Source: Escherichia coli
GTDB taxonomy: Bacteria > Pseudomonadota > Gammaproteobacteria > Enterobacterales > Enterobacteriaceae
Reading direction: 5' to 3' (one strand)
Length of the DNA stretch: 64,000 nucleotides
Assembly (NCBI RefSeq): GCF_002854065.1
Contig: NZ_CP024147.1
In this document: positions 4,337 to 32,148 of the stretch, in pieces
How positions within the stretch are numbered: the stretch's first letter is position 1
Layout of the letters: each line of letters starts with the position of its first letter
Notes under the pieces: generated by a model
Database searches by the model: none
What the model saw: the letters and a program-made list of their open reading frames with translations, nothing else
What the model was told of the DNA's origin: nothing
Program-made: the position numbers and the translations under genes

Positions 4337-5785
4337 ATGAAACTGAACGACAGTAACTTATTCCGCCAGCAGGCGTTGATTAACGGGGAATGGCTGGACG
4401 CCAACAATGGTGAAGTCATCGACGTCACCAATCCGACGAACGGCGACAAGCTGGGTAGCGTGCCGAAAATGGGCGCTGATGAAACCCGCGCCGCTATCGA
4501 CGCCGCCAACCGCGCCCTGCCCGCCTGGCATGCGCTCACCGCCAAAGAACGCGCCAACATTCTGCGCAACTGGTTCAATTTGATGATGGAGCATCAGGAC
4601 GATTTAGCGCGCCTGATGACCCTCGAACAGGGCAAACCACTGGCTGAAGCGAAAGGTGAAATCAGCTACGCCGCCTCCTTTATTGAGTGGTTTGCCGAAG
4701 AAGGCAAACGCATTTATGGCGACACCATTCCCGGTCATCAGGCCGATAAACGCCTGATTGTTATCAAGCAGCCGATTGGCGTCACCGCGGCTATCACGCC
4801 GTGGAACTTCCCGGCGGCGATGATTACCCGTAAAGCCGGCCCGGCGCTGGCGGCTGGCTGCACGATGGTGCTGAAGCCCGCCAGTCAGACGCCGTTCTCT
4901 GCGTTGGCGCTGGCAGAGCTGGCGATCCGCGCGGGCATTCCGGCTGGCGTGTTTAACGTGGTCACCGGTTCGGCGGGCGCGGTGGGTAATGAACTGACCA
5001 GCAACCCGCTGGTACGCAAACTGTCGTTTACCGGCTCGACCGAAATTGGCCGCCAGTTAATGGAACAGTGCGCGAAAGACATCAAAAAAGTGTCGCTGGA
5101 GCTGGGCGGCAACGCGCCGTTTATCGTCTTTGACGATGCCGATCTCGATAAAGCCGTGGAAGGCGCACTGGCCTCGAAATTCCGCAACGCCGGGCAAACC
5201 TGCGTCTGCGCCAACCGTTTATACGTGCAGGACGGCGTGTATGACCGCTTTGCCGAAAAATTGCAGCAGGCGGTGAGCAAACTGCACATCGGTGACGGGC
5301 TGGAGAAAGGCGTCACTATCGGGCCGCTGATTGATGAAAAAGCAGTAGCAAAAGTAGAAGAGCATATTGCCGATGCGCTGGAGAAAGGCGCACGCGTGGT
5401 TTGCGGTGGTAAAGCACACGAACGCGGCGGTAACTTCTTCCAGCCGACCATTCTGGTGGACGTTCCAGCCAACGCCAAAGTGTCGAAAGAAGAGACGTTC
5501 GGCCCCCTCGCCCCGCTGTTCCGTTTTAAAGATGAAGCCGATGTGATCGCGCAAGCCAATGACACCGAGTTTGGTCTTGCCGCCTATTTCTACGCCCGTG
5601 ATTTAAGCCGCGTCTTCCGCGTGGGCGAAGCGCTGGAGTACGGCATCGTCGGCATCAATACCGGGATTATTTCCAATGAAGTGGCCCCGTTCGGCGGCAT
5701 TAAAGCCTCGGGGCTGGGTCGTGAAGGTTCGAAGTATGGCATCGAAGATTACTTAGAAATCAAATATATGTGCATCGGTCTTTAA
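4337..5785 (+). CDS. gabD: Succinate-semialdehyde dehydrogenase (NADP+)
   Basis: 482-aa ORF MKLNDSNLFRQQALINGEWLDANNG..., aldehyde dehydrogenase family. Confidence 0.96.
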   Translation: MKLNDSNLFRQQALINGEWLDANNGEVIDVTNPTNGDKLGSVPKMGADETRAAIDAANRALPAWHALTAKERANILRNWFNLMMEHQDDLARLMTLEQGKPLAEAKGEISYAASFIEWFAEEGKRIYGDTIPGHQADKRLIVIKQPIGVTAAITPWNFPAAMITRKAGPALAAGCTMVLKPASQTPFSALALAELAIRAGIPAGVFNVVTGSAGAVGNELTSNPLVRKLSFTGSTEIGRQLMEQCAKDIKKVSLELGGNAPFIVFDDADLDKAVEGALASKFRNAGQTCVCANRLYVQDGVYDRFAEKLQQAVSKLHIGDGLEKGVTIGPLIDEKAVAKVEEHIADALEKGARVVCGGKAHERGGNFFQPTILVDVPANAKVSKEETFGPLAPLFRFKDEADVIAQANDTEFGLAAYFYARDLSRVFRVGEALEYGIVGINTGIISNEVAPFGGIKASGLGREGSKYGIEDYLEIKYMCIGL

Positions 5786-5798
5786 CTGGAGAATGCGA

Positions 5799-7079
5799 AT
5801 GAGCAGCAATAAAGAGTTAATGCAGCGCCGCAGTCAGGCGATTCCCCGTGGCGTTGGGCAAATTCACCCCATTTTCGCTGATCGCGCGGAAAACTGCCGG
5901 GTGTGGGACGTTGAAGGCCGTGAGTATCTTGATTTCGCGGGCGGCATTGCGGTGCTCAATACCGGGCACCTGCATCCGAAAGTGGTTGCGGCAGTGGAAG
6001 CGCAGTTGAAAAAACTGTCGCACACCTGCTTCCAGGTGCTGGCCTACGAGCCGTATCTGGAGCTGTGCGAGATTATGAATCAGAAGGTGCCAGGCGATTT
6101 CGCCAAGAAAACGCTGCTGGTTACGACCGGTTCCGAAGCGGTGGAAAACGCGGTGAAAATCGCCCGCGCCGCCACCAAACGTAGCGGCACCATCGCTTTT
6201 AGCGGCGCGTATCACGGGCGCACGCATTACACGCTGGCGCTGACCGGCAAGGTGAATCCGTACTCTGCGGGCATGGGCCTGATGCCAGGGCACGTTTATC
6301 GCGCGCTTTATCCTTGCCCACTGCACGGCATCAGTGAAGATGATGCTATCGCCAGTATCCACCGAATTTTTAAAAATGATGCGGCGCCGGAAGATATTGC
6401 CGCCATCGTGATTGAGCCGGTTCAGGGCGAAGGCGGTTTCTACGCCGCTACGCCAGCTTTTATGCAGCGTTTACGCGCGCTGTGTGACGAGCACGGGATC
6501 ATGCTGATTGCCGATGAAGTGCAGAGCGGCGCGGGGCGTACCGGCACGCTGTTTGCGATGGAGCAAATGGGCGTGGCACCAGATCTCACCACCTTTGCGA
6601 AATCGATCGCAGGCGGTTTCCCGCTGGCGGGCGTCACCGGGCGCGCCGAAGTGATGGATGCCGTCGCACCGGGCGGGCTGGGCGGCACCTATGCCGGTAA
6701 CCCGATTGCCTGCGTGGCGGCGCTGGAAGTGTTGAAGGTGTTCGAGCAGGAAAATCTGCTGCAAAAAGCTAACGTTCTGGGGCAGAAGTTGAAAGACGGA
6801 TTGTTGGCGATCGCCGAAAAACACACTGAGATCGGCGACGTACGCGGCCTGGGGGCGATGATCGCCATCGAGCTGTTTGAAGATGGCGATCACAACAAGC
6901 CGGACGCCAAACTCACCGCCGAGATCGTGGCGCGCGCCCGCGATAAAGGTCTGATTCTTCTCTCGTGCGGCCCGTATTACAACGTGCTGCGCATCCTTGT
7001 ACCGCTCACCATTGAAGATGCTCAGATTCGTCAGGGTCTGGAGATCATCAGCCAGTGTTTTGCTGAGGCGAAGCAGTAG
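5799..7079 (+). CDS. gabT: 4-aminobutyrate aminotransferase
   Basis: Recognised GabT sequence from M(S)SNKELMQRRSQAIPRGVGQ; start chosen at second ATG with better spacing to GGAG. Confidence 0.95.
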   Translation: MSSNKELMQRRSQAIPRGVGQIHPIFADRAENCRVWDVEGREYLDFAGGIAVLNTGHLHPKVVAAVEAQLKKLSHTCFQVLAYEPYLELCEIMNQKVPGDFAKKTLLVTTGSEAVENAVKIARAATKRSGTIAFSGAYHGRTHYTLALTGKVNPYSAGMGLMPGHVYRALYPCPLHGISEDDAIASIHRIFKNDAAPEDIAAIVIEPVQGEGGFYAATPAFMQRLRALCDEHGIMLIADEVQSGAGRTGTLFAMEQMGVAPDLTTFAKSIAGGFPLAGVTGRAEVMDAVAPGGLGGTYAGNPIACVAALEVLKVFEQENLLQKANVLGQKLKDGLLAIAEKHTEIGDVRGLGAMIAIELFEDGDHNKPDAKLTAEIVARARDKGLILLSCGPYYNVLRILVPLTIEDAQIRQGLEIISQCFAEAKQ

Positions 7080-7091
7080 CACCGCCCCCAT

Positions 7092-7350
7092 GCCGGAGGC
7101 GACGCTGCGCGTCTTGTCCGGCCTACGAGAGTGTAGGTCGGATAAGGCGTTTACGCCGCATCCGACAATCGGCGCACCCTGCCGGAGGCGATGCTTACGC
7201 GTCTTGTCCGGCCTACGGAAATGTAGATCGGATAAGGCGTTTACGCCGCATCCGACATTCGGCGCATCCATGCCGGAGGCGACGCTGCGCGTCTTGTCCG
7301 GCCTACGAGAGTGTAGGTCGGATAAGGCGTTTACGCCGCATCCTACAATC
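7092..7350. repeat. Three tandem ~90-bp REP/BIME units in gabT-gabP spacer
   Basis: Unit gccggaggcgacgctgcgcgtcttgtccggcctacg...cggataaggcgtttacgccgcatccg repeated three times with few substitutions; classical REP palindromes. Confidence 0.9.
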
Positions 7351-7496
7351 TGTACGTGAACAGGAAGAAATCTATGTTGGCCGGGTAAGGCGGAGCCGCT
7401 CTCCGGCAAAAAGAATCAATAACAATTATACGCGTGACCCGACGCGGGAAATGTCGGGGCGCTCTCCCAAGTGACACACTTTCGAGAGGATTCAGG

Positions 7497-8897
7497 ATGG
7501 GGCAATCATCGCAACCACATGAGTTAGGCGGCGGGCTGAAGTCACGCCATGTCACCATGTTGTCTATTGCCGGTGTTATCGGCGCAAGTCTGTTTGTCGG
7601 TTCCAGCGTCGCCATCGCCGAAGCGGGCCCGGCGGTATTACTGGCCTATCTGTTCGCCGGGCTACTGGTGGTTATGATTATGCGGATGTTGGCGGAAATG
7701 GCGGTTGCCACGCCCGATACCGGTTCGTTTTCCACCTATGCCGATAAAGCTATTGGTCGTTGGGCGGGTTATACCATCGGCTGGTTGTACTGGTGGTTTT
7801 GGGTACTGGTTATCCCGCTGGAAGCCAACATCGCCGCCATGATCCTGCACTCGTGGGTTCCAGGCATTCCCATCTGGTTATTTTCCCTCGTCATTACCCT
7901 CGCCTTAACTGGCAGTAATTTATTAAGCGTTAAAAACTACGGCGAATTTGAGTTCTGGCTGGCGCTGTGCAAAGTCATCGCTATCCTGGCCTTTATTTTC
8001 CTTGGTGCAGTCGCAATTAGCGGTTTTTACCCGTATGCCGACGTGAGCGGTATTTCAAGATTGTGGGATAGCGGCGGCTTTATGCCCAACGGCTTCGGCG
8101 CGGTATTAAGCGCGATGTTGATCACCATGTTCTCGTTTATGGGCGCAGAAATTGTCACCATTGCCGCCGCGGAATCCGACACGCCGGAAAAACATATTGT
8201 CCGCGCCACCAACTCGGTTATCTGGCGTATTTCTATCTTCTATTTATGCTCTATTTTTGTCGTCGTGGCGTTAATACCGTGGAATATGCCGGGGCTGAAA
8301 GCCGTTGGTTCTTATCGCTCGGTTCTGGAATTGCTCAATATTCCCCATGCGAAATTAATCATGGACTGCGTGATATTACTTTCCGTAACCAGTTGCCTGA
8401 ACTCGGCGCTGTATACCGCTTCCAGGATGCTCTACTCCTTAAGCCGTCGCGGTGATGCGCCCGCGGTAATGGGTAAAATCAACCGCAGTAAAACCCCGTA
8501 CGTGGCGGTGTTACTCTCCACCGGCGCGGCATTTTTAACGGTGGTGGTGAACTATTACGCACCTGCGAAAGTGTTTAAATTCCTGATAGACAGCTCCGGC
8601 GCTATCGCCCTGCTGGTTTATCTGGTAATTGCCGTTTCACAGTTGCGGATGCGTAAAATCTTGCTCGCGGAAGGAAGCGAAATCCGCCTGCGGATGTGGC
8701 TTTATCCCTGGCTCACCTGGCTGGTGATTGGCTTTATTACCTTTGTGTTGGTGGTCATGCTATTCCGCCCGGCGCAACAGTTAGAAGTGATTTCCACCGG
8801 CTTATTAGCAATAGGGATAATCTGTACCGTGCCGATTATGGCGCGCTGGAAAAAACTGGTATTGTGGCAAAAAACACCCGTTCATAATACGCGCTGA
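7497..8897 (+). CDS. gabP: GABA permease (APC family)
   Basis: Recognised sequence MGQSSQPHELGGGLKSRHVTMLSIAG...; ORF track start 7434 is an upstream extension into the REP region. Confidence 0.95.
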   Translation: MGQSSQPHELGGGLKSRHVTMLSIAGVIGASLFVGSSVAIAEAGPAVLLAYLFAGLLVVMIMRMLAEMAVATPDTGSFSTYADKAIGRWAGYTIGWLYWWFWVLVIPLEANIAAMILHSWVPGIPIWLFSLVITLALTGSNLLSVKNYGEFEFWLALCKVIAILAFIFLGAVAISGFYPYADVSGISRLWDSGGFMPNGFGAVLSAMLITMFSFMGAEIVTIAAAESDTPEKHIVRATNSVIWRISIFYLCSIFVVVALIPWNMPGLKAVGSYRSVLELLNIPHAKLIMDCVILLSVTSCLNSALYTASRMLYSLSRRGDAPAVMGKINRSKTPYVAVLLSTGAAFLTVVVNYYAPAKVFKFLIDSSGAIALLVYLVIAVSQLRMRKILLAEGSEIRLRMWLYPWLTWLVIGFITFVLVVMLFRPAQQLEVISTGLLAIGIICTVPIMARWKKLVLWQKTPVHNTR

Positions 8898-8917
8898 TAA
8901 TGATCAGGAGTCACACC

Positions 8918-9580
8918 ATGACCATTACGTCTCTGGATGGCTATCGCTGGCTGAAGAACGATATTATTCGCGGTAATTTTCAACCGGATGAAAAATTACG
9001 AATGAGTTTGCTGACATCGCGTTATGCACTTGGCGTTGGGCCGTTACGGGAAGCTCTTTCGCAACTGGTGGCGGAACGGCTGGTCACGGTGGTGAATCAA
9101 AAAGGGTATCGGGTGGCGTCTATGTCAGAGCAGGAGCTGCTCGATATTTTCGATGCCCGCGCCAATATGGAAGCGATGTTAGTGAGTCTGGCGATTGCCC
9201 GCGGTGGCGATGAGTGGGAGGCAGACGTTCTCGCAAAAGCGCATCTGTTGAGTAAGCTTGAGGCCCGTGACGCCAGCGAGAAAATGCTTGATGAGTGGGA
9301 TCTGCGTCATCAGGCGTTTCATACGGCAATTGTGGCGGGCTGTGGTTCTCACTATTTGCTGCAAATGCGTGAACGGTTGTTTGATCTGGCGGCGCGCTAT
9401 CGATTTATCTGGCTGCGACAAACAGTGCTTTCGGTGGAAATGCTGGAGGATAAACACGATCAGCACCAGACCCTGACTGCGGCGGTACTGGCGCGAGATA
9501 CCGCGCGCGCCAGTGAGTTAATGCGCCAGCATTTACTGACGCCAATTCCCATTATCCAGCAGGCGATGGCTGGCAATTAA
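8918..9580 (+). CDS. csiR: GntR-family repressor CsiR
   Basis: Sequence MTITSLDGYRWLKNDIIRGNF...; GGAG RBS 7 nt upstream of this ATG. Confidence 0.93.
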   Translation: MTITSLDGYRWLKNDIIRGNFQPDEKLRMSLLTSRYALGVGPLREALSQLVAERLVTVVNQKGYRVASMSEQELLDIFDARANMEAMLVSLAIARGGDEWEADVLAKAHLLSKLEARDASEKMLDEWDLRHQAFHTAIVAGCGSHYLLQMRERLFDLAARYRFIWLRQTVLSVEMLEDKHDQHQTLTAAVLARDTARASELMRQHLLTPIPIIQQAMAGN

Positions 9581-27830: not shown

Positions 27831-29369
27831 ATGCAACAGCAAAAACCGCTGGAAGGCGCGCAACTGGTCATTATGACGATTGCGCTGTCACTAGCGACAT
27901 TCATGCAGGTGCTGGACTCCACCATTGCTAACGTGGCGATCCCCACTATCGCCGGGAATCTGGGCTCATCGCTCAGCCAGGGAACGTGGGTAATCACTTC
28001 TTTCGGGGTGGCGAATGCCATCTCGATCCCGCTTACCGGCTGGCTGGCAAAGCGCGTCGGGGAAGTGAAACTGTTCCTCTGGTCCACCATCGCCTTTGCT
28101 ATTGCGTCGTGGGCGTGTGGTGTCTCCAGCAGCCTAAATATGCTGATCTTCTTCCGCGTGATTCAGGGGATTGTCGCCGGGCCGTTGATCCCGCTTTCGC
28201 AAAGTCTATTGCTGAATAACTACCCGCCAGCCAAACGCTCAATCGCGCTGGCGTTGTGGTCGATGACGGTGATTGTCGCGCCAATTTGCGGCCCGATCCT
28301 CGGCGGCTATATCAGTGATAATTATCACTGGGGCTGGATATTCTTCATCAACGTGCCGATTGGCGTGGCGGTGGTGTTGATGACATTGCAGACGCTGCGC
28401 GGACGCGAAACCCGCACCGAACGGCGGCGGATTGATGCCGTGGGGCTGGCACTGCTGGTTATTGGTATCGGCAGCCTGCAGATTATGCTCGACCGCGGTA
28501 AAGAGCTGGACTGGTTTTCATCACAGGAAATTATCATCCTTACCGTGGTGGCGGTGGTGGCTATCTGCTTCCTGATTGTCTGGGAGCTGACCGACGATAA
28601 CCCGATAGTCGATCTGTCGTTGTTTAAGTCGCGCAACTTCACCATCGGCTGCTTGTGTATCAGCCTCGCGTATATGCTCTACTTCGGCGCTATTGTTCTG
28701 CTGCCGCAGTTGTTGCAGGAGGTCTACGGTTACACGGCAACGTGGGCAGGTCTGGCCTCTGCGCCGGTAGGGATTATTCCGGTGATCCTGTCGCCGATTA
28801 TCGGCCGCTTCGCGCATAAACTGGATATGCGGCGGCTGGTAACCTTCAGCTTTATTATGTATGCCGTCTGCTTCTACTGGCGTGCCTATACCTTTGAACC
28901 GGGCATGGATTTTGGCGCGTCGGCCTGGCCGCAGTTTATCCAGGGCTTCGCTGTGGCCTGCTTCTTTATGCCGCTGACCACCATTACGCTGTCTGGTTTG
29001 CCACCGGAACGACTGGCGGCGGCATCGAGTCTCTCCAACTTTACGCGTACGCTGGCGGGGTCTATCGGCACGTCGATAACCACAACCATGTGGACCAACC
29101 GCGAGTCGATGCACCATGCGCAGTTAACCGAGTCGGTAAACCCGTTCAACCCGAATGCCCAGGCGATGTACAGTCAACTGGAAGGGCTTGGGATGACGCA
29201 ACAGCAGGCCTCCGGCTGGATTGCCCAGCAGATCACTAACCAGGGGCTGATTATTTCCGCCAATGAGATCTTCTGGATGTCAGCCGGGATATTCCTCGTC
29301 CTGCTGGGGCTGGTGTGGTTTGCTAAACCGCCATTTGGCGCAGGTGGCGGCGGAGGCGGTGCGCACTAA
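27831..29369 (+). CDS. emrB: Multidrug efflux MFS transporter EmrB
   Basis: Sequence MQQQKPLEGAQLVIMTIALSLATFMQV...; the ORF track start at 27822 is an in-frame GTG. Confidence 0.95.
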   Translation: MQQQKPLEGAQLVIMTIALSLATFMQVLDSTIANVAIPTIAGNLGSSLSQGTWVITSFGVANAISIPLTGWLAKRVGEVKLFLWSTIAFAIASWACGVSSSLNMLIFFRVIQGIVAGPLIPLSQSLLLNNYPPAKRSIALALWSMTVIVAPICGPILGGYISDNYHWGWIFFINVPIGVAVVLMTLQTLRGRETRTERRRIDAVGLALLVIGIGSLQIMLDRGKELDWFSSQEIIILTVVAVVAICFLIVWELTDDNPIVDLSLFKSRNFTIGCLCISLAYMLYFGAIVLLPQLLQEVYGYTATWAGLASAPVGIIPVILSPIIGRFAHKLDMRRLVTFSFIMYAVCFYWRAYTFEPGMDFGASAWPQFIQGFAVACFFMPLTTITLSGLPPERLAAASSLSNFTRTLAGSIGTSITTTMWTNRESMHHAQLTESVNPFNPNAQAMYSQLEGLGMTQQQASGWIAQQITNQGLIISANEIFWMSAGIFLVLLGLVWFAKPPFGAGGGGGGAH

Positions 29370-29376
29370 GGTTGTC

Positions 29377-29401
29377 AAAGGGAGCTTCGGCTCCCTTTTT
29401 A
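29377..29401 (+). terminator. Rho-independent terminator after emrB
   Basis: aaagggagc-ttcg-gctccc followed by TTTTT. Confidence 0.8.
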
Positions 29402-29626
29402 TTTGCTCATTGTGCAAACGGTTGTTTTATCCACTCATTCGGTGTATCTTTTCGCCGCCCCAAACTCTTCCATTCACTATTAACCGGTTCTGAGCATTCG
29501 CTCAGGTTGTTAATTCTCTTTTTCCTTCGCCCTCGCTTTCGCGGGTGATACTCACATTTTCCGTTTAACCCCATAACTCGCACCCTCGCGGGCGTACGTT
29601 TATTACACACAAAATAATGGATTATT

Positions 29627-30334
29627 ATGAATACCCAACTTAAATACGGGAGAACCTGGCATTATCCTTTCTCCCCCGGCACCACCAGCGATGACCGCAT
29701 TAACGCCGATTACTGGCAGGATTTACAGGCCATCGCGCAACTGGTGCATACAGAAAAACTCGACGGCGAAAATAACTGCCTTAACCGCTACGGTGTGTTT
29801 GCCCGTTCCCATGCCGCGCCTACGCAGTCGGCATGGACCTATAAAATTCGCCAGCGTTGGCAACTGCTGAAAAACGATCTCGGCGACCTGGAGTTGTTTG
29901 GCGAAAATCTCTACGCCGTTCATTCCATTGAATACCGCGCGCTGGAACAGGACTTTTACCTGTTTGCCGTTCGCTGCCAGGATATGTGGCTGAGCTGGGA
30001 AGAGGTGCAGTTTTACGCCGCCCTGTTTGATTTCCCCTGCGTTCCCGAAATCTCCGGCCCGCAGCCGGGGAATGATGAAAAAAGCTGGCAACGTGATTTT
30101 CTGGCACTGACCAATGCGCGCGGCGCGTTCGATCCCTGGGATACACAAACCGGGCAACCCTGTACTCTGGAAGGCATTGTCAGCCGGAATCGTGATGCGT
30201 TTTCCGTCGCTGACTTTTCGCATAACGTCTTCAAGTATGTGCGCAAAAATCATGTCAAAACCACTGTGCACTGGAAACGACACTGGCAACGGGCGCGGAT
30301 GGCCCATGAGTTCGCTTATGGAGAACAGTCATGA
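29627..30334 (+). CDS. ATP-dependent RNA ligase-like nucleotidyltransferase (Rnl2-type catalytic domain only)
   Basis: 235-aa ORF with covalent nucleotidyltransferase motifs in canonical order and spacing: motif I EKLDGEN, motif [12 protein letters not shown], motif IV LEGIVSR, motif V FKYVRK. Confidence 0.75.
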
Positions 30335-31443
30335 TTTGGCAGCTTACCGACGATAAACGCTGGTCGACACTACGCCAGCGTTTCAGTTGGGTTGAGGAGA
30401 TGCATCACACGCCACAAGACCCGGAGCATCATGGTGAAGGTGACGTCGGCGTGCATACCGAAATGGTGCTTAACGCCCTTGTTACTCAGCCAGAATTCCA
30501 GCAACTCCCCGCTCAACAGCAGGAAGTTTTATGGGCGGCGGCGTTATTACATGATGTTGAAAAGCGCAGCACTACCGTGCAGGAAAACGGACGTATTCAG
30601 TCGCCGGGCCATGCTCGTCGGGGCGAACTGACGGCCCGGCTGATTTTGTGGCGCGATATCCCAACGCCGTTCGTGCTGCGCGAGCAAATCGTTGCGCTGG
30701 TGCGTCTGCATGGGTTACCGCTATGGTTACTGGAACGTCCGGAACCGGAGCGTTTGTTGCTCACGGCTGCAATGCGCATCGACACGCGTCTGCTCACTTT
30801 GCTTGCTCGTGCCGATCTGCTTGGTCGCCAAAGCCCGGATCAGCAATCAATGCTGGAACGCATCGATCTGTTCGAGCTGTTTTGCCAGGAGCAACAGTGT
30901 TGGGGAAAAGTGCGCTCGTTCGTGTCTGATTCCGCACGCTGGCATTACCTGACCCATGAGCAAAGTTCTCCTGATTTTGTTCCCTGGGAGGCTGAACCTT
31001 TTGAGGGCATTTTGCTGTGTGGCTTACCGGGTATGGGCAAAGATCGCTATATCAATGAACAGTGCCAGGGAATGGACGTTATCAGCCTTGATGATATGCG
31101 GCGGCGAATCAATGCCAATCCGGACGACAAAACCGCCACCGGGCGTATTGTGCAACAGGCAAAAGAAGAGGCACGCGTTTTTTTACGCCAGAAAAAGCCG
31201 TTCATCTGGAATGCAACGAACTTTACCCGCCAGCTTCGTAGCCAGCTCATCAGCCTGTTTACGGCTTACGGCGCACGAGTAAAAATAGTTTATCTTGAAG
31301 TGCCATGGGCGCAATGGAAGCAGCAAAATGCCAGACGCGAGTATGCAGTTCCTGAAGCGGTCGTGATGCGGATGGCCTCAAGGCTGGAAGTTCCTCAACC
31401 TGATGAAGCACATAGCGTGGAGTATCGGGTGATTGAAAGGTAA
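30331..31443 (+). CDS. Bifunctional HD-domain phosphoesterase / 5'-OH polynucleotide kinase (HD-Pnk architecture)
   Basis: 370-aa ORF; N-terminal HD metal-ligand pattern ([18 protein letters not shown], further His and Asp); C-terminal P-loop GLPGMGKD followed by [17 protein letters not shown] and [16 protein letters not shown], resembling the T4 Pnk kinase domain; start overlaps upstream stop (ATGA). Confidence 0.75.
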
Positions 31444-31448
31444 AAAAA

Positions 31449-31474
31449 CCGGGCGGTGGTGTCACCTGCCCGGC
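31449..31474. terminator. Bidirectional hairpin terminator between HD-Pnk gene and convergent luxS
   Basis: ccgggc-loop-gcccgg stem flanked by A-run upstream and T-rich run downstream. Confidence 0.6.
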
Positions 31475-31491
31475 TTCTTTTGTTCCACTGA

Positions 31492-32007
31492 CTAAATGTG
31501 CAGTTCCTGCAACTTCTCTTTCGGCAGCGCCAGTTCTTCGTTGCTGTTGATGCGCACGTCACGTTCCAGAATGCTACGCGCAATATCCTGCGCTTCCTGC
31601 AACGAGTGCATCTGGTAAGTGCCACACTGGTAGACGTTCAGTTCCGGGATCTGATTCTGATCCTGCACTTTCAGCACGTCTTCCATTGCCGCTTTCCAGG
31701 CATCAGCAACACGCTGCTCATCTGGCGTACCAATCAGACTCATATAAAAACCGGTGCGGCAGCCCATTGGCGAGATATCGATAATCTCTACACCATTACC
31801 GTTAAGATGGTTACGCATAAAACCAGCAAACAGGTGCTCCAGGGTATGGATCCCTCTTTCTGGCATCACTTCTTTGTTCGGCACGCAGAAGCGCAGATCG
31901 AACACGGTGATTGCGTCGCCATGCGGGGTGTTCATTGTTTTCGCCACCCGAACTGCAGGCGCTTCCATCCGGGTATGATCGACTGTGAAGCTATCTAACA
32001 ACGGCAT
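31492..32007 (-). CDS. luxS: S-ribosylhomocysteine lyase (autoinducer-2 synthase)
   Basis: 171-aa [34 protein letters not shown]... Confidence 0.97.
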
Positions 32008-32075: not shown

Positions 32076-32148
32076 GAAAGACGCGCATTTGTTATCATCA
32101 TCCCTGAATTCAGAGATGAAATTTTGGCCACTCACGAGTGGCCTTTTT
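32076..32148 (+). ncRNA. micA: MicA (SraD) small regulatory RNA
   Basis: Sequence gaaagacgcgcatttgttatcatcatccctgaattcagagatgaaattttggccactcacgagtggccttttt recognised as MicA, including the terminator hairpin and U-tail. Confidence 0.9.

Follow-up and report, generated by a model that had tools for sequence, protein, structure and literature searches.

We analysed a 64,000-nt stretch of Escherichia coli DNA (NZ_CP024147.1; hereafter the window), one strand of which supplies the positions given below. Between emrB and luxS it carries two open reading frames (ORFs), which together form the pair studied here. ORF1 (29627-30334, + strand) begins with ATG and encodes LIG, a protein of 235 amino acids (aa); ORF2 (30331-31443, + strand), likewise with an ATG start, encodes the 370-aa HD-Pnk. 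At the junction (30320-30334, + strand) the two genes overlap by the 4 bases ATGA (30331-30334), the ATG of HD-Pnk lying over the TGA of LIG, and a GGAG (30320-30323) sits 7 nt 5' of this ATG. LIG and HD-Pnk are translationally coupled. Upstream of the pair, emrB stops at 29369 and is followed by its intrinsic terminator hairpin (29377-29398, + strand; AAAGGGAGC-TTCG-GCTCCCTTT, then a T run). Downstream, the pair and the convergent luxS gene have in common a bidirectional intrinsic terminator (31442-31483), composed of an A run, a hairpin at 31449-31473 and a T-rich tail. The ORF positions and the hairpins confirm an earlier note on this DNA, which had described two coupled genes with a 4-bp ATGA overlap between the emrB and luxS terminators. 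Its statement that in K-12 emrB is directly followed by luxS was also correct: the emrB-luxS gap of K-12 MG1655 is only 63 bp. At a 100%-identical locus (strain CUWW06), RefSeq names the two genes "RNA ligase family protein" and "ATP-binding protein", and the annotated neighbours are all housekeeping: ygaZH, emrRAB, luxS, gshA, yqaAB and tRNA genes. A search of the literature returned no paper connecting emrB, luxS and RNA ligase.

The domain families that the earlier note had proposed, a minimal RNA ligase-type nucleotidyltransferase and an HD phosphoesterase fused to a T4 Pnk-like kinase, are borne out by Pfam and NCBIfam, by family profiles and by predicted folds. Residues 38-205 of LIG match Pfam RNA_ligase (PF09414, E = 4.8e-28), and the protein also matches phage RNA-ligase PHROGs (phrog_24030 'RNA ligase', E = 1.9e-31). 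Nucleotidyltransferase motifs I, III, IIIa, IV and V and the active-site lysine are all present. Motif I reads EKLDGEN, with Lys44 (K44) encoded at 29756-29758. When 22 homologues (Proteobacteria, Bacteroidota and Lachnospiraceae) were aligned, K44, E93, F113, E182-G183, K203 and R206 proved invariant, and an N-terminal signature, KYGRTxHYPFSPG..DD, is conserved as well. The AlphaFold (AF2) model of the 235-aa protein (predicted local distance difference test, pLDDT, 78.6) consists of the nucleotidyltransferase fold only. Its significant neighbours in the PDB, as found with Foldseek, are all ATP-dependent RNA ligases (query-normalised TM-score, TMq, ~0.4-0.5; 14-20% identity): Naegleria Rnl5 (NgrRnl), the fungal Trl1 ligase domain, T4 Rnl2, archaeal Rnl3 and T4 Rnl1, with fungal Trl1 ligase domains among the best (TMq up to 0.53). 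By sequence, the LIG family profile found no solved relative in the PDB (best E = 0.07). A single-sequence phmmer search against the PDB returned mollusc hemocyanins (E = 2e-9); we rejected this relationship as an artefact in which many weak repeats are summed, since every domain i-Evalue exceeded 0.3 and the matches were gone when the family profile was used. LIG therefore belongs to a distinct minimal ligase clade, made up of the nucleotidyltransferase domain alone and devoid of any accessory domain for nucleic-acid binding. More than 2000 homologues were found for each of LIG and HD-Pnk. Among seven long proteins tested that are distant relatives of LIG (35-42% identity), six have the ligase fused to Pnk-type kinase domains. 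These six, with a PNKP-like kinase domain (P0285, P0289, P0297, P0300, P0314 and P0355), are 650-1400 aa long, and P0297 apparently has a second RNA-ligase-like region.

HD-Pnk comprises an HD phosphoesterase domain (30331-30900, + strand; approximately residues 1-190) and a P-loop 5'-OH polynucleotide kinase domain (30994-31443, + strand; approximately residues 222-370 plus the stop codon). The Pfam HD match is weak (residues 62-136, E = 0.075); NCBIfam models place a CCA-addition/repair HD region (E = 7.7e-5) and HDIG (E = 0.0034) at the N-terminus, and the family profile matches the HD region of the tRNA nucleotidyltransferase structures 3wfo/3wfp (E = 2.5e-5), with which the fold match agrees. 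When 23 homologues were aligned, the invariant residues of this domain were Q29, H34, H42, H74-D75 (30550-30555), K78, H94, H127, D162 and R166; the conserved metal ligands H34, H74-D75, H94, H127 and D162 are all among them. The C-terminal half is more readily recognised: residues 227-355 match Pfam AAA_33 (E = 2.2e-31), NCBIfam returns the kinase region of TIGR04075 bacter_Pnkp (E = 8.5e-8) and also PSTK kinases, and in the PDB the family profile finds PSTK, the Clostridium thermocellum Pnkp kinase (CthPnkp) and T4 Pnk. In this domain the same 23 homologues share K237, D254, R257, N294-A295-T296 and R303. The P-loop, G231-LPGMGKD-238 (31021-31044), has Asp in place of the usual Ser/Thr. The form GLPGxGKD occurs throughout a clade of Proteobacteria, Bacteroidota and Lachnospiraceae, while the Deinococcus radiodurans HD-Pnk has GSGKS. 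The AF2 model is of high quality (pLDDT 93.5; predicted TM-score, pTM, 0.92), and Foldseek aligned it to the CthPnkp kinase (target-normalised TM-score, TMt, 0.72-0.75), to T4 Pnk (TMt 0.73, 26-28% identity) and to mammalian PNKP. Homologues are 367-379 aa long. From its conserved residues HD-Pnk is predicted to be a 5'-OH kinase and a phosphoesterase acting on 2',3'-cyclic, 3' and 2' phosphates. For neither the LIG nor the HD-Pnk family did profile searches against the PDB find a solved structure of a member.

The two genes travel together. We examined loci from Escherichia, Klebsiella, Phytobacter, Enterobacter, Superficieibacter, Serratia, Xenorhabdus, Providencia and Salmonella and, beyond the Enterobacterales, from at least eight Bacteroidota, eight Lachnospiraceae and one jumbo phage. 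A ligase gene lies directly upstream of HD-Pnk in every full-length HD-Pnk locus examined, except that in Deinococcus a macro/PARG gene stands between the two. Every locus from the Enterobacteriaceae, Xenorhabdus and Providencia keeps the ATGA overlap; the overlaps of Serratia, Chitinophaga and Niastella span 13-23 nt. In Xenorhabdus and Providencia the pair stands bare among unrelated genes. Between E. coli and Bacteroidota, LIG is 61-64% and HD-Pnk 54-57% identical, an unusually high conservation, and the catalytic residues are invariant across the homologues from Proteobacteria, Bacteroidota and Firmicutes. Adjoining ligase and HD-Pnk genes are also encoded by an uncultured phage of 462 kb (LR756500.1; locus L040, 3856-6059), whose 364-aa ligase has an N-terminal extension matching HNH endonuclease PHROGs. 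The assembly of a Chryseolinea sp. (locus L037, 6135-8351) has the ligase gene broken into two ORFs; there, a co-oriented gene for a metallo-beta-lactamase-fold protein lies 3' of HD-Pnk, and a beta-CASP/RMMBL (RNase J/CPSF-like) protein is encoded beyond it on the opposite strand.

Within E. coli the pair was present in 999 of 5426 complete genomes (~18%), and every match was chromosomal. Carriers include Nissle 1917, extraintestinal pathogenic E. coli (ExPEC) strains such as ExPEC XM, and O145:H28 (enterohaemorrhagic E. coli, EHEC). The pair occupies the same site in five other genera. It lies between emrB and luxS in Klebsiella spallanzanii, Enterobacter sp. BIGb0383, Superficieibacter and the uncultured Enterobacteriaceae metagenome-assembled genome (MAG) UBA3516, in which extra genes separate it from luxS (locus L006, 6997-11699); in Phytobacter massiliensis (locus L007, 7074-9166) it comes directly after emrB, with no luxS match within the fetched stretch. 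Most of the extra genes found 3' of the pair in UBA3516 and Phytobacter (470/576 aa and 121 aa) run in the other direction. The emrB terminator of the window is an "occupied-site" version, unlike the K-12 terminator, and is kept in the other pair-carrying genera. Compared with Nissle, the pair has a synonymous divergence (dS) of 0.12-0.14 and the flanking genes emrB, luxS and gshA one of 0.04-0.16; compared with Klebsiella, the values are 1.8-3.2 and 0.9-1.4, respectively. The dS of the pair is similar to that of these flanking core genes. The ratio of non-synonymous to synonymous divergence (dN/dS) of LIG and HD-Pnk against their orthologues is 0.04-0.15, and the pair is under purifying selection. 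Together with the Pfam matches, the many homologues and the RefSeq annotation, this shows that neither gene is a chance ORF.

A trace of the pair persists in a genome that has lost most of it. In E. albertii NBRC 107761 (locus L028, 7964-8270) only the last 88 codons of HD-Pnk are left, directly after an occupied-type emrB terminator, the product of a 1772-bp internal deletion in which the equivalent of window positions 29411-31182 is missing. A REP-like element of ~145 bp lies between this remnant and luxS. At the window locus we found no integrase, no transposase and no clear target duplication or repeat boundary, and in a search for insertion scars a weak imperfect repeat, TT..CCACT.A.T, alone flanked the pair. 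The 63-bp spacer of K-12 could not be aligned to either junction past the gene ends. With an unalignable spacer and only this weak repeat, the K-12 site itself tells nothing about polarity. Because of the same-site synteny in five genera, the flank-like dS and the E. albertii remnant, a long residence at this site in the Enterobacteriaceae, with repeated loss or decay that includes the K-12 lineage, is more likely than a recent insertion. The word "inserted", which the earlier note had applied to the pair, is accordingly doubtful.

Outside Escherichia, the neighbours of the pair offer clues to its substrate. RtcB lies within ~4.5 kb of the pair in 10 non-Escherichia loci from two phyla. In four Serratia species (loci L010, at 5480-9116, L011, L012 and L019) the pair directly follows rtcB2-prfH, co-oriented and with gaps of at most 83 nt, and the same order of four co-oriented genes, RtcB-PrfH-LIG-HD-Pnk, is found in the Bacteroidota member Adhaeribacter (locus L036, 2009-6110). 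In a Flammeovirgaceae MAG, RtcB flanks the pair and is present twice. Four further Bacteroidota loci (L015, 5302-8787; L017, 3834-7316; L038/L039, 7776-11107) have the pair, then RtcB, then a protein of ~690 aa in which Clp/AAA-like and FtsH-type M41 peptidase regions are combined; this FtsH-like AAA/M41 protein may be another recurrent partner of the pair. As RtcB is roughly one gene among thousands, we infer that its linkage to the pair in 10 loci of two phyla is far beyond chance. RtcB2-PrfH is known to rescue and religate ribosomes whose 16S rRNA has been cut by colicin E3; it has been described as a two-gene operon, in descriptions that do not mention LIG/HD-Pnk neighbours. In Runella the pair is linked to Tpt1, an RNA 2'-phosphotransferase (PMC6097658). 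Because of the RtcB linkage and of Tpt1 in Runella, an RNA target is favoured, and the genomic context favours RNA of the translation apparatus.

Our interpretation, which we hold to be probable, is that the pair is a translationally coupled LIG/HD-Pnk "heal-and-seal" module and an old chromosomal accessory module of the Enterobacteriaceae. In such a module the HD domain would strip a 2',3'-cyclic phosphate, a 3'-phosphate or a 2'-phosphate from the 3' side of a break, the C-terminal P-loop domain of HD-Pnk would phosphorylate the 5'-OH side, and LIG, charged with AMP on Lys44, would seal the resulting 3'-OH and 5'-phosphate ends. Since LIG has no accessory nucleic-acid-binding domain and the two genes are coupled, LIG probably acts only when bound to HD-Pnk or when offered a particular structured substrate; such a need would also explain the negative in-vitro results of homologous ligases described below. 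Sealing by LIG, the formation of a LIG/HD-Pnk complex and RNA as the target are what we infer from these data.

The pair is a member of an already described type of LIG/HD-Pnk cassette and represents no new kind of system; the LigB/HD-Pnk cassette has been known since 2007 from Deinococcus and since 2017 from Runella (Munir & Shuman 2017, J Bacteriol 199:e00739-16). In the Runella slithyformis cluster, as set out in 2018 by Shuman's laboratory, an ORF for a putative ATP-dependent ligase overlaps the start of HD-Pnk, with Tpt1 and a methyltransferase-HIT (MTase-HIT) protein encoded upstream (PMC6097658). The same paper describes Runella HD-Pnk as an N-terminal HD 2',3'-phosphoesterase joined to a C-terminal 5'-OH kinase (PMC6097658). 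The E. coli pair agrees with that of Runella in its two genes, their order and sizes and the overlap of the ORFs, a match made by description and through homologues from other Bacteroidota, the phylum of Runella. It differs in that Tpt1 and MTase-HIT adjoin the Runella pair and neither is found at the E. coli locus.

We reached the second cassette by tblastn against plasmid records. It lies on megaplasmid MP1 of D. radiodurans, where consecutive genes encode a member of the RNA ligase family, a TIGR02452 (PARG/macro) protein and an AAA family ATPase. These correspond to DR_B0100 (LigB/DdrP), DR_B0099 (PARG) and DR_B0098 (HD-Pnk). LIG is 35% identical to DR_B0100 over 91% of its length (E = 5e-27), and K44 aligns with K40, which is essential for the AMP adduct of DR_B0100. 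HD-Pnk and DR_B0098 (DraHD-Pnk) are 29% identical end to end (E = 8e-34); Schmier & Shuman 2018 treat DR_B0098 under the name "Deinococcus radiodurans HD-Pnk", and 5'-OH kinase activity has been shown for this protein. Like the E. coli pair, the Deinococcus ligB (ddrP) operon joins a minimal, nucleotidyltransferase-only ligase to an HD-Pnk. Unlike the E. coli pair, it has a macro/PARG gene between the two and a GSGKS rather than a GMGKD P-loop, and it is plasmid-borne and radiation-induced. The PARG-type macro domain of Deinococcus removes ADP-ribose from phosphate ends of nucleic acids. A 2025 paper still gives the role of the Deinococcus operon as "RNA and/or DNA repair".

Other end-healing and sealing systems resemble the pair in part. 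The earlier note had likened it to Pnkp and Rnl1 of phage T4, and the overall logic stands: both systems combine a 5'-OH kinase of the same fold, a 3'-end phosphoesterase and an ATP-dependent ligase. The likeness fails in the details, as the T4 phosphatase is a DxDxT acylphosphatase (HAD-type) instead of an HD enzyme, T4 has no fused HD-Pnk, and T4 Rnl1 has a C-terminal tRNA-specific domain, which the 235-aa LIG lacks. T4 Rnl1 is indeed among the weaker structural matches of LIG (ranks 33-35 of the 35 at E <= 0.001; TMq 0.38-0.41). The bacterial Pnkp/Hen1 systems (and Pnkp1-Rnl-Hen1) share with the pair a Pnk-type kinase domain and the heal-and-seal logic, but bacterial Pnkp has a metallophosphoesterase of the lambda-phosphatase type, its own fused ligase domain and a Hen1 methyltransferase as partner. 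HD-Pnk reaches only 30.8 bits against TIGR04075, for which the cut-off is 750, and does so in the kinase region only, and no Hen1 adjoins the pair. RtcB repair (RtcBA; RtcB2-PrfH) deals with the same break chemistry, a cyclic phosphate or 3'-phosphate and a 5'-OH. RtcB, in contrast to LIG, is an unrelated GTP-dependent ligase that joins 3'-phosphate and 5'-OH ends directly, without healing, and it does not adjoin the E. coli pair. The best Foldseek match of LIG, NgrRnl, is restricted to the nucleotidyltransferase domain (TMt 0.35, 19-20% identity); LIG lacks the N-terminal OB domain and so falls outside the Rnl5 group (DraRnl/NgrRnl).

Several observations weigh against a heal-and-seal module of this age and kind. 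DR_B0100 and Runella LIG both adenylylate, yet joined no standard DNA or RNA ends in vitro; Runella LIG formed ligase-AMP and left every standard DNA or RNA substrate tested unjoined (PMC6097658). Kinship with the Runella proteins themselves is indicated indirectly, by the 54-57% identity of HD-Pnk to other Bacteroidota. Ionising radiation induces the Deinococcus operon, whose HD-Pnk has a part in resistance both to such radiation and to mitomycin C; this points to DNA damage. In the RefSeq annotation of the locus, no RNA-repair, toxin or immunity gene adjoins the E. coli pair, nor does any nuclease or phage gene, in agreement with the earlier note, which had seen no nuclease, toxin or phage gene there. 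Neither LIG nor HD-Pnk matched the defence models of PADLOC-DB v2 at E <= 0.01. The pair is missing from 82% of complete E. coli genomes and is decaying in some carriers: IS200C or IS3 has inserted into the locus of a few E. coli strains, and in Nissle 1917 the ligase is annotated as frameshifted (locus L034, 4758-5455). The Nissle locus is 10 bp shorter than the window and ~12 bp shorter than most similar carriers, and this shortened length was seen in 3 of 40 evenly sampled E. coli carriers. As for the earlier note's statement that the pair has every activity needed to heal and seal such breaks, the conserved healing and ligase residues agree with it as a prediction, and the behaviour of the two homologous ligases puts its sealing part in question.

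The most serious alternative is that the pair repairs DNA strand breaks, HD-Pnk cleaning the 3'-phosphate/5'-OH DNA ends left by oxidative or radiation damage and the ligase sealing the nick, as has been proposed for the homologous ligB operon of D. radiodurans. The homology of LIG and HD-Pnk to DR_B0100 and DR_B0098 brings with it the Deinococcus genetics, which are the main argument for a DNA target: besides the radiation induction of the operon, an HD-Pnk mutant has been reported to be sensitive to ionising radiation. One study reported DNA ligation by DR_B0100, and this required the presence of both DR_B0098 and PprA. The title of the Runella enzyme paper speaks of a DNA/RNA end-healing enzyme, and among the fold matches of the kinase is mammalian PNKP, which acts in DNA repair. 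Other evidence points away from DNA. The ligase is of the RNA-ligase type, with neither an OB nor a DNA-clamping domain, and its best structure matches are all RNA ligases; the recurrent neighbours of the pair are RNA enzymes (RtcB and PrfH, and Tpt1 in Runella); and the leader upstream of LIG contains no LexA-type operator of fixed spacing, its palindrome having a spacer that varies by genus. E. coli is not known to have PprA, which we also count against this alternative. Repair of DNA by the E. coli pair seems unlikely to us. The RNA break that the earlier note had proposed as substrate keeps the support of the RtcB, PrfH and Tpt1 context, but the radiation and mitomycin C phenotypes of Deinococcus make DNA a candidate too.

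A second alternative concerns the chemistry of LIG. Rather than sealing canonical 3'-OH and 5'-phosphate ends, the enzyme might need a non-standard end, such as the 2'-phosphate used by fungal and plant tRNA ligases or some other modified end, or it might only transfer AMP, in which case the pair would carry out end modification. That two independent homologues adenylylate and leave standard substrates unjoined is what such an enzyme would be expected to do, and it accords with the linkage of the Runella pair to Tpt1 and the MTase-HIT protein, with the PARG-type macro domain inserted in Deinococcus and with the fungal Trl1 ligase domains among the best structure matches of LIG. All five nucleotidyltransferase motifs for the three-step ligase pathway are nevertheless conserved, and the pair loci of the Enterobacteriaceae have no Tpt1, macro or HIT neighbour. 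Removal of 2'-phosphates by HD-Pnk, an activity that Munir and Shuman reportedly described in 2017 for the Runella enzyme, would moreover destroy the 2'-phosphate that the ligase is supposed to require. The in-vitro negatives, for their part, may reflect a missing partner or a wrong substrate. A non-canonical LIG is in our judgement distinctly improbable.

A more specific extension of the heal-and-seal interpretation would account for the same negatives. LIG might be a specialised sealing enzyme for ribotoxin-cut RNA held in a particle, which would leave it without activity on naked model substrates; the leading candidate is 16S or 23S rRNA in a damaged ribosome, or else tRNA. LIG/HD-Pnk would then be a second, ATP-dependent arm of RtcB(2)-PrfH ribosome rescue and repair, and would take on ends unsuited to RtcB, such as 3'-OH, 2'-phosphate or trimmed ends. 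In a variant of this idea the ligase needs or leaves a 2'-phosphate, which would give the orphan bacterial Tpt1/KptA a substrate. We regard this extension as speculative and give it only a slim chance of being correct. Lastly, that the pair is a relic without function, or else a mobile or defence islet that arrived recently and happens to lie between emrB and luxS, would fit its patchy presence in E. coli, the Nissle frameshift, the IS insertions and the E. albertii remnant, but is very hard to reconcile with dN/dS values of 0.04-0.15 in both genes, a dS comparable to that of emrB, luxS and gshA, the shared site in five other genera, the purely chromosomal E. coli matches, the lack of integrase, transposase, repeat boundaries and any PADLOC match, and the 61-64% protein identity retained between E. 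coli and Bacteroidota.

The presence of the pair in E. coli is of practical value. The carriers put the cassette into the most tractable genetic host, and the frameshift of Nissle 1917 provides a natural ligase-null allele. The linkage to rtcB2-prfH leads to a concrete hypothesis, namely the repair of ribosomes or tRNAs cut by colicins or by contact-dependent inhibition (CDI) ribotoxins. Were this true, whether or not a strain has the pair would help to determine how it survives toxin-mediated competition.

The 5' leader or promoter region of the pair (29420-29626, + strand) is itself conserved in part. Over a core block of ~70 nt (29444-29512), E. coli shares 81-87% identity with Klebsiella, Phytobacter and UBA3516, and coding dS between the same genera exceeds 1; in these genera the downstream (29513-29578) and upstream (29420-29443) flanks are less conserved (32-65% and 58-71%, respectively). 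The core contains a hairpin (29490-29505) with an invariant 6-bp stem, CTGAGC (29490-29495) paired with GCTCAG (29500-29505), and a loop of variable length. This hairpin also occurs in Salmonella contigs and is missing 5' of the pair in Xenorhabdus and Providencia. We considered whether the CTG-N10-CAG palindrome at 29490-29505 might be a LexA box and rejected this, as its spacer is GC-rich and ranges in length from ~10 to 12 nt by genus; for these reasons the palindrome fits an RNA hairpin better. A scan with the sigma-70 consensus gave no + strand promoter upstream of the pair, and an Rfam scan gave no family in the leader. The conserved core could be an unusual promoter, an attenuator or a leader RNA.

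Upstream of the pair the gene order is emrR, emrA, emrB. On the other side, luxS (31492-32007 including the stop codon, - strand), convergent with the pair, is followed by MicA and gshA. The MicA small RNA (32076-32147; Rfam RF00078, 83.9 bits), the sole match of the Rfam scan, lies in its expected place between luxS and gshA.

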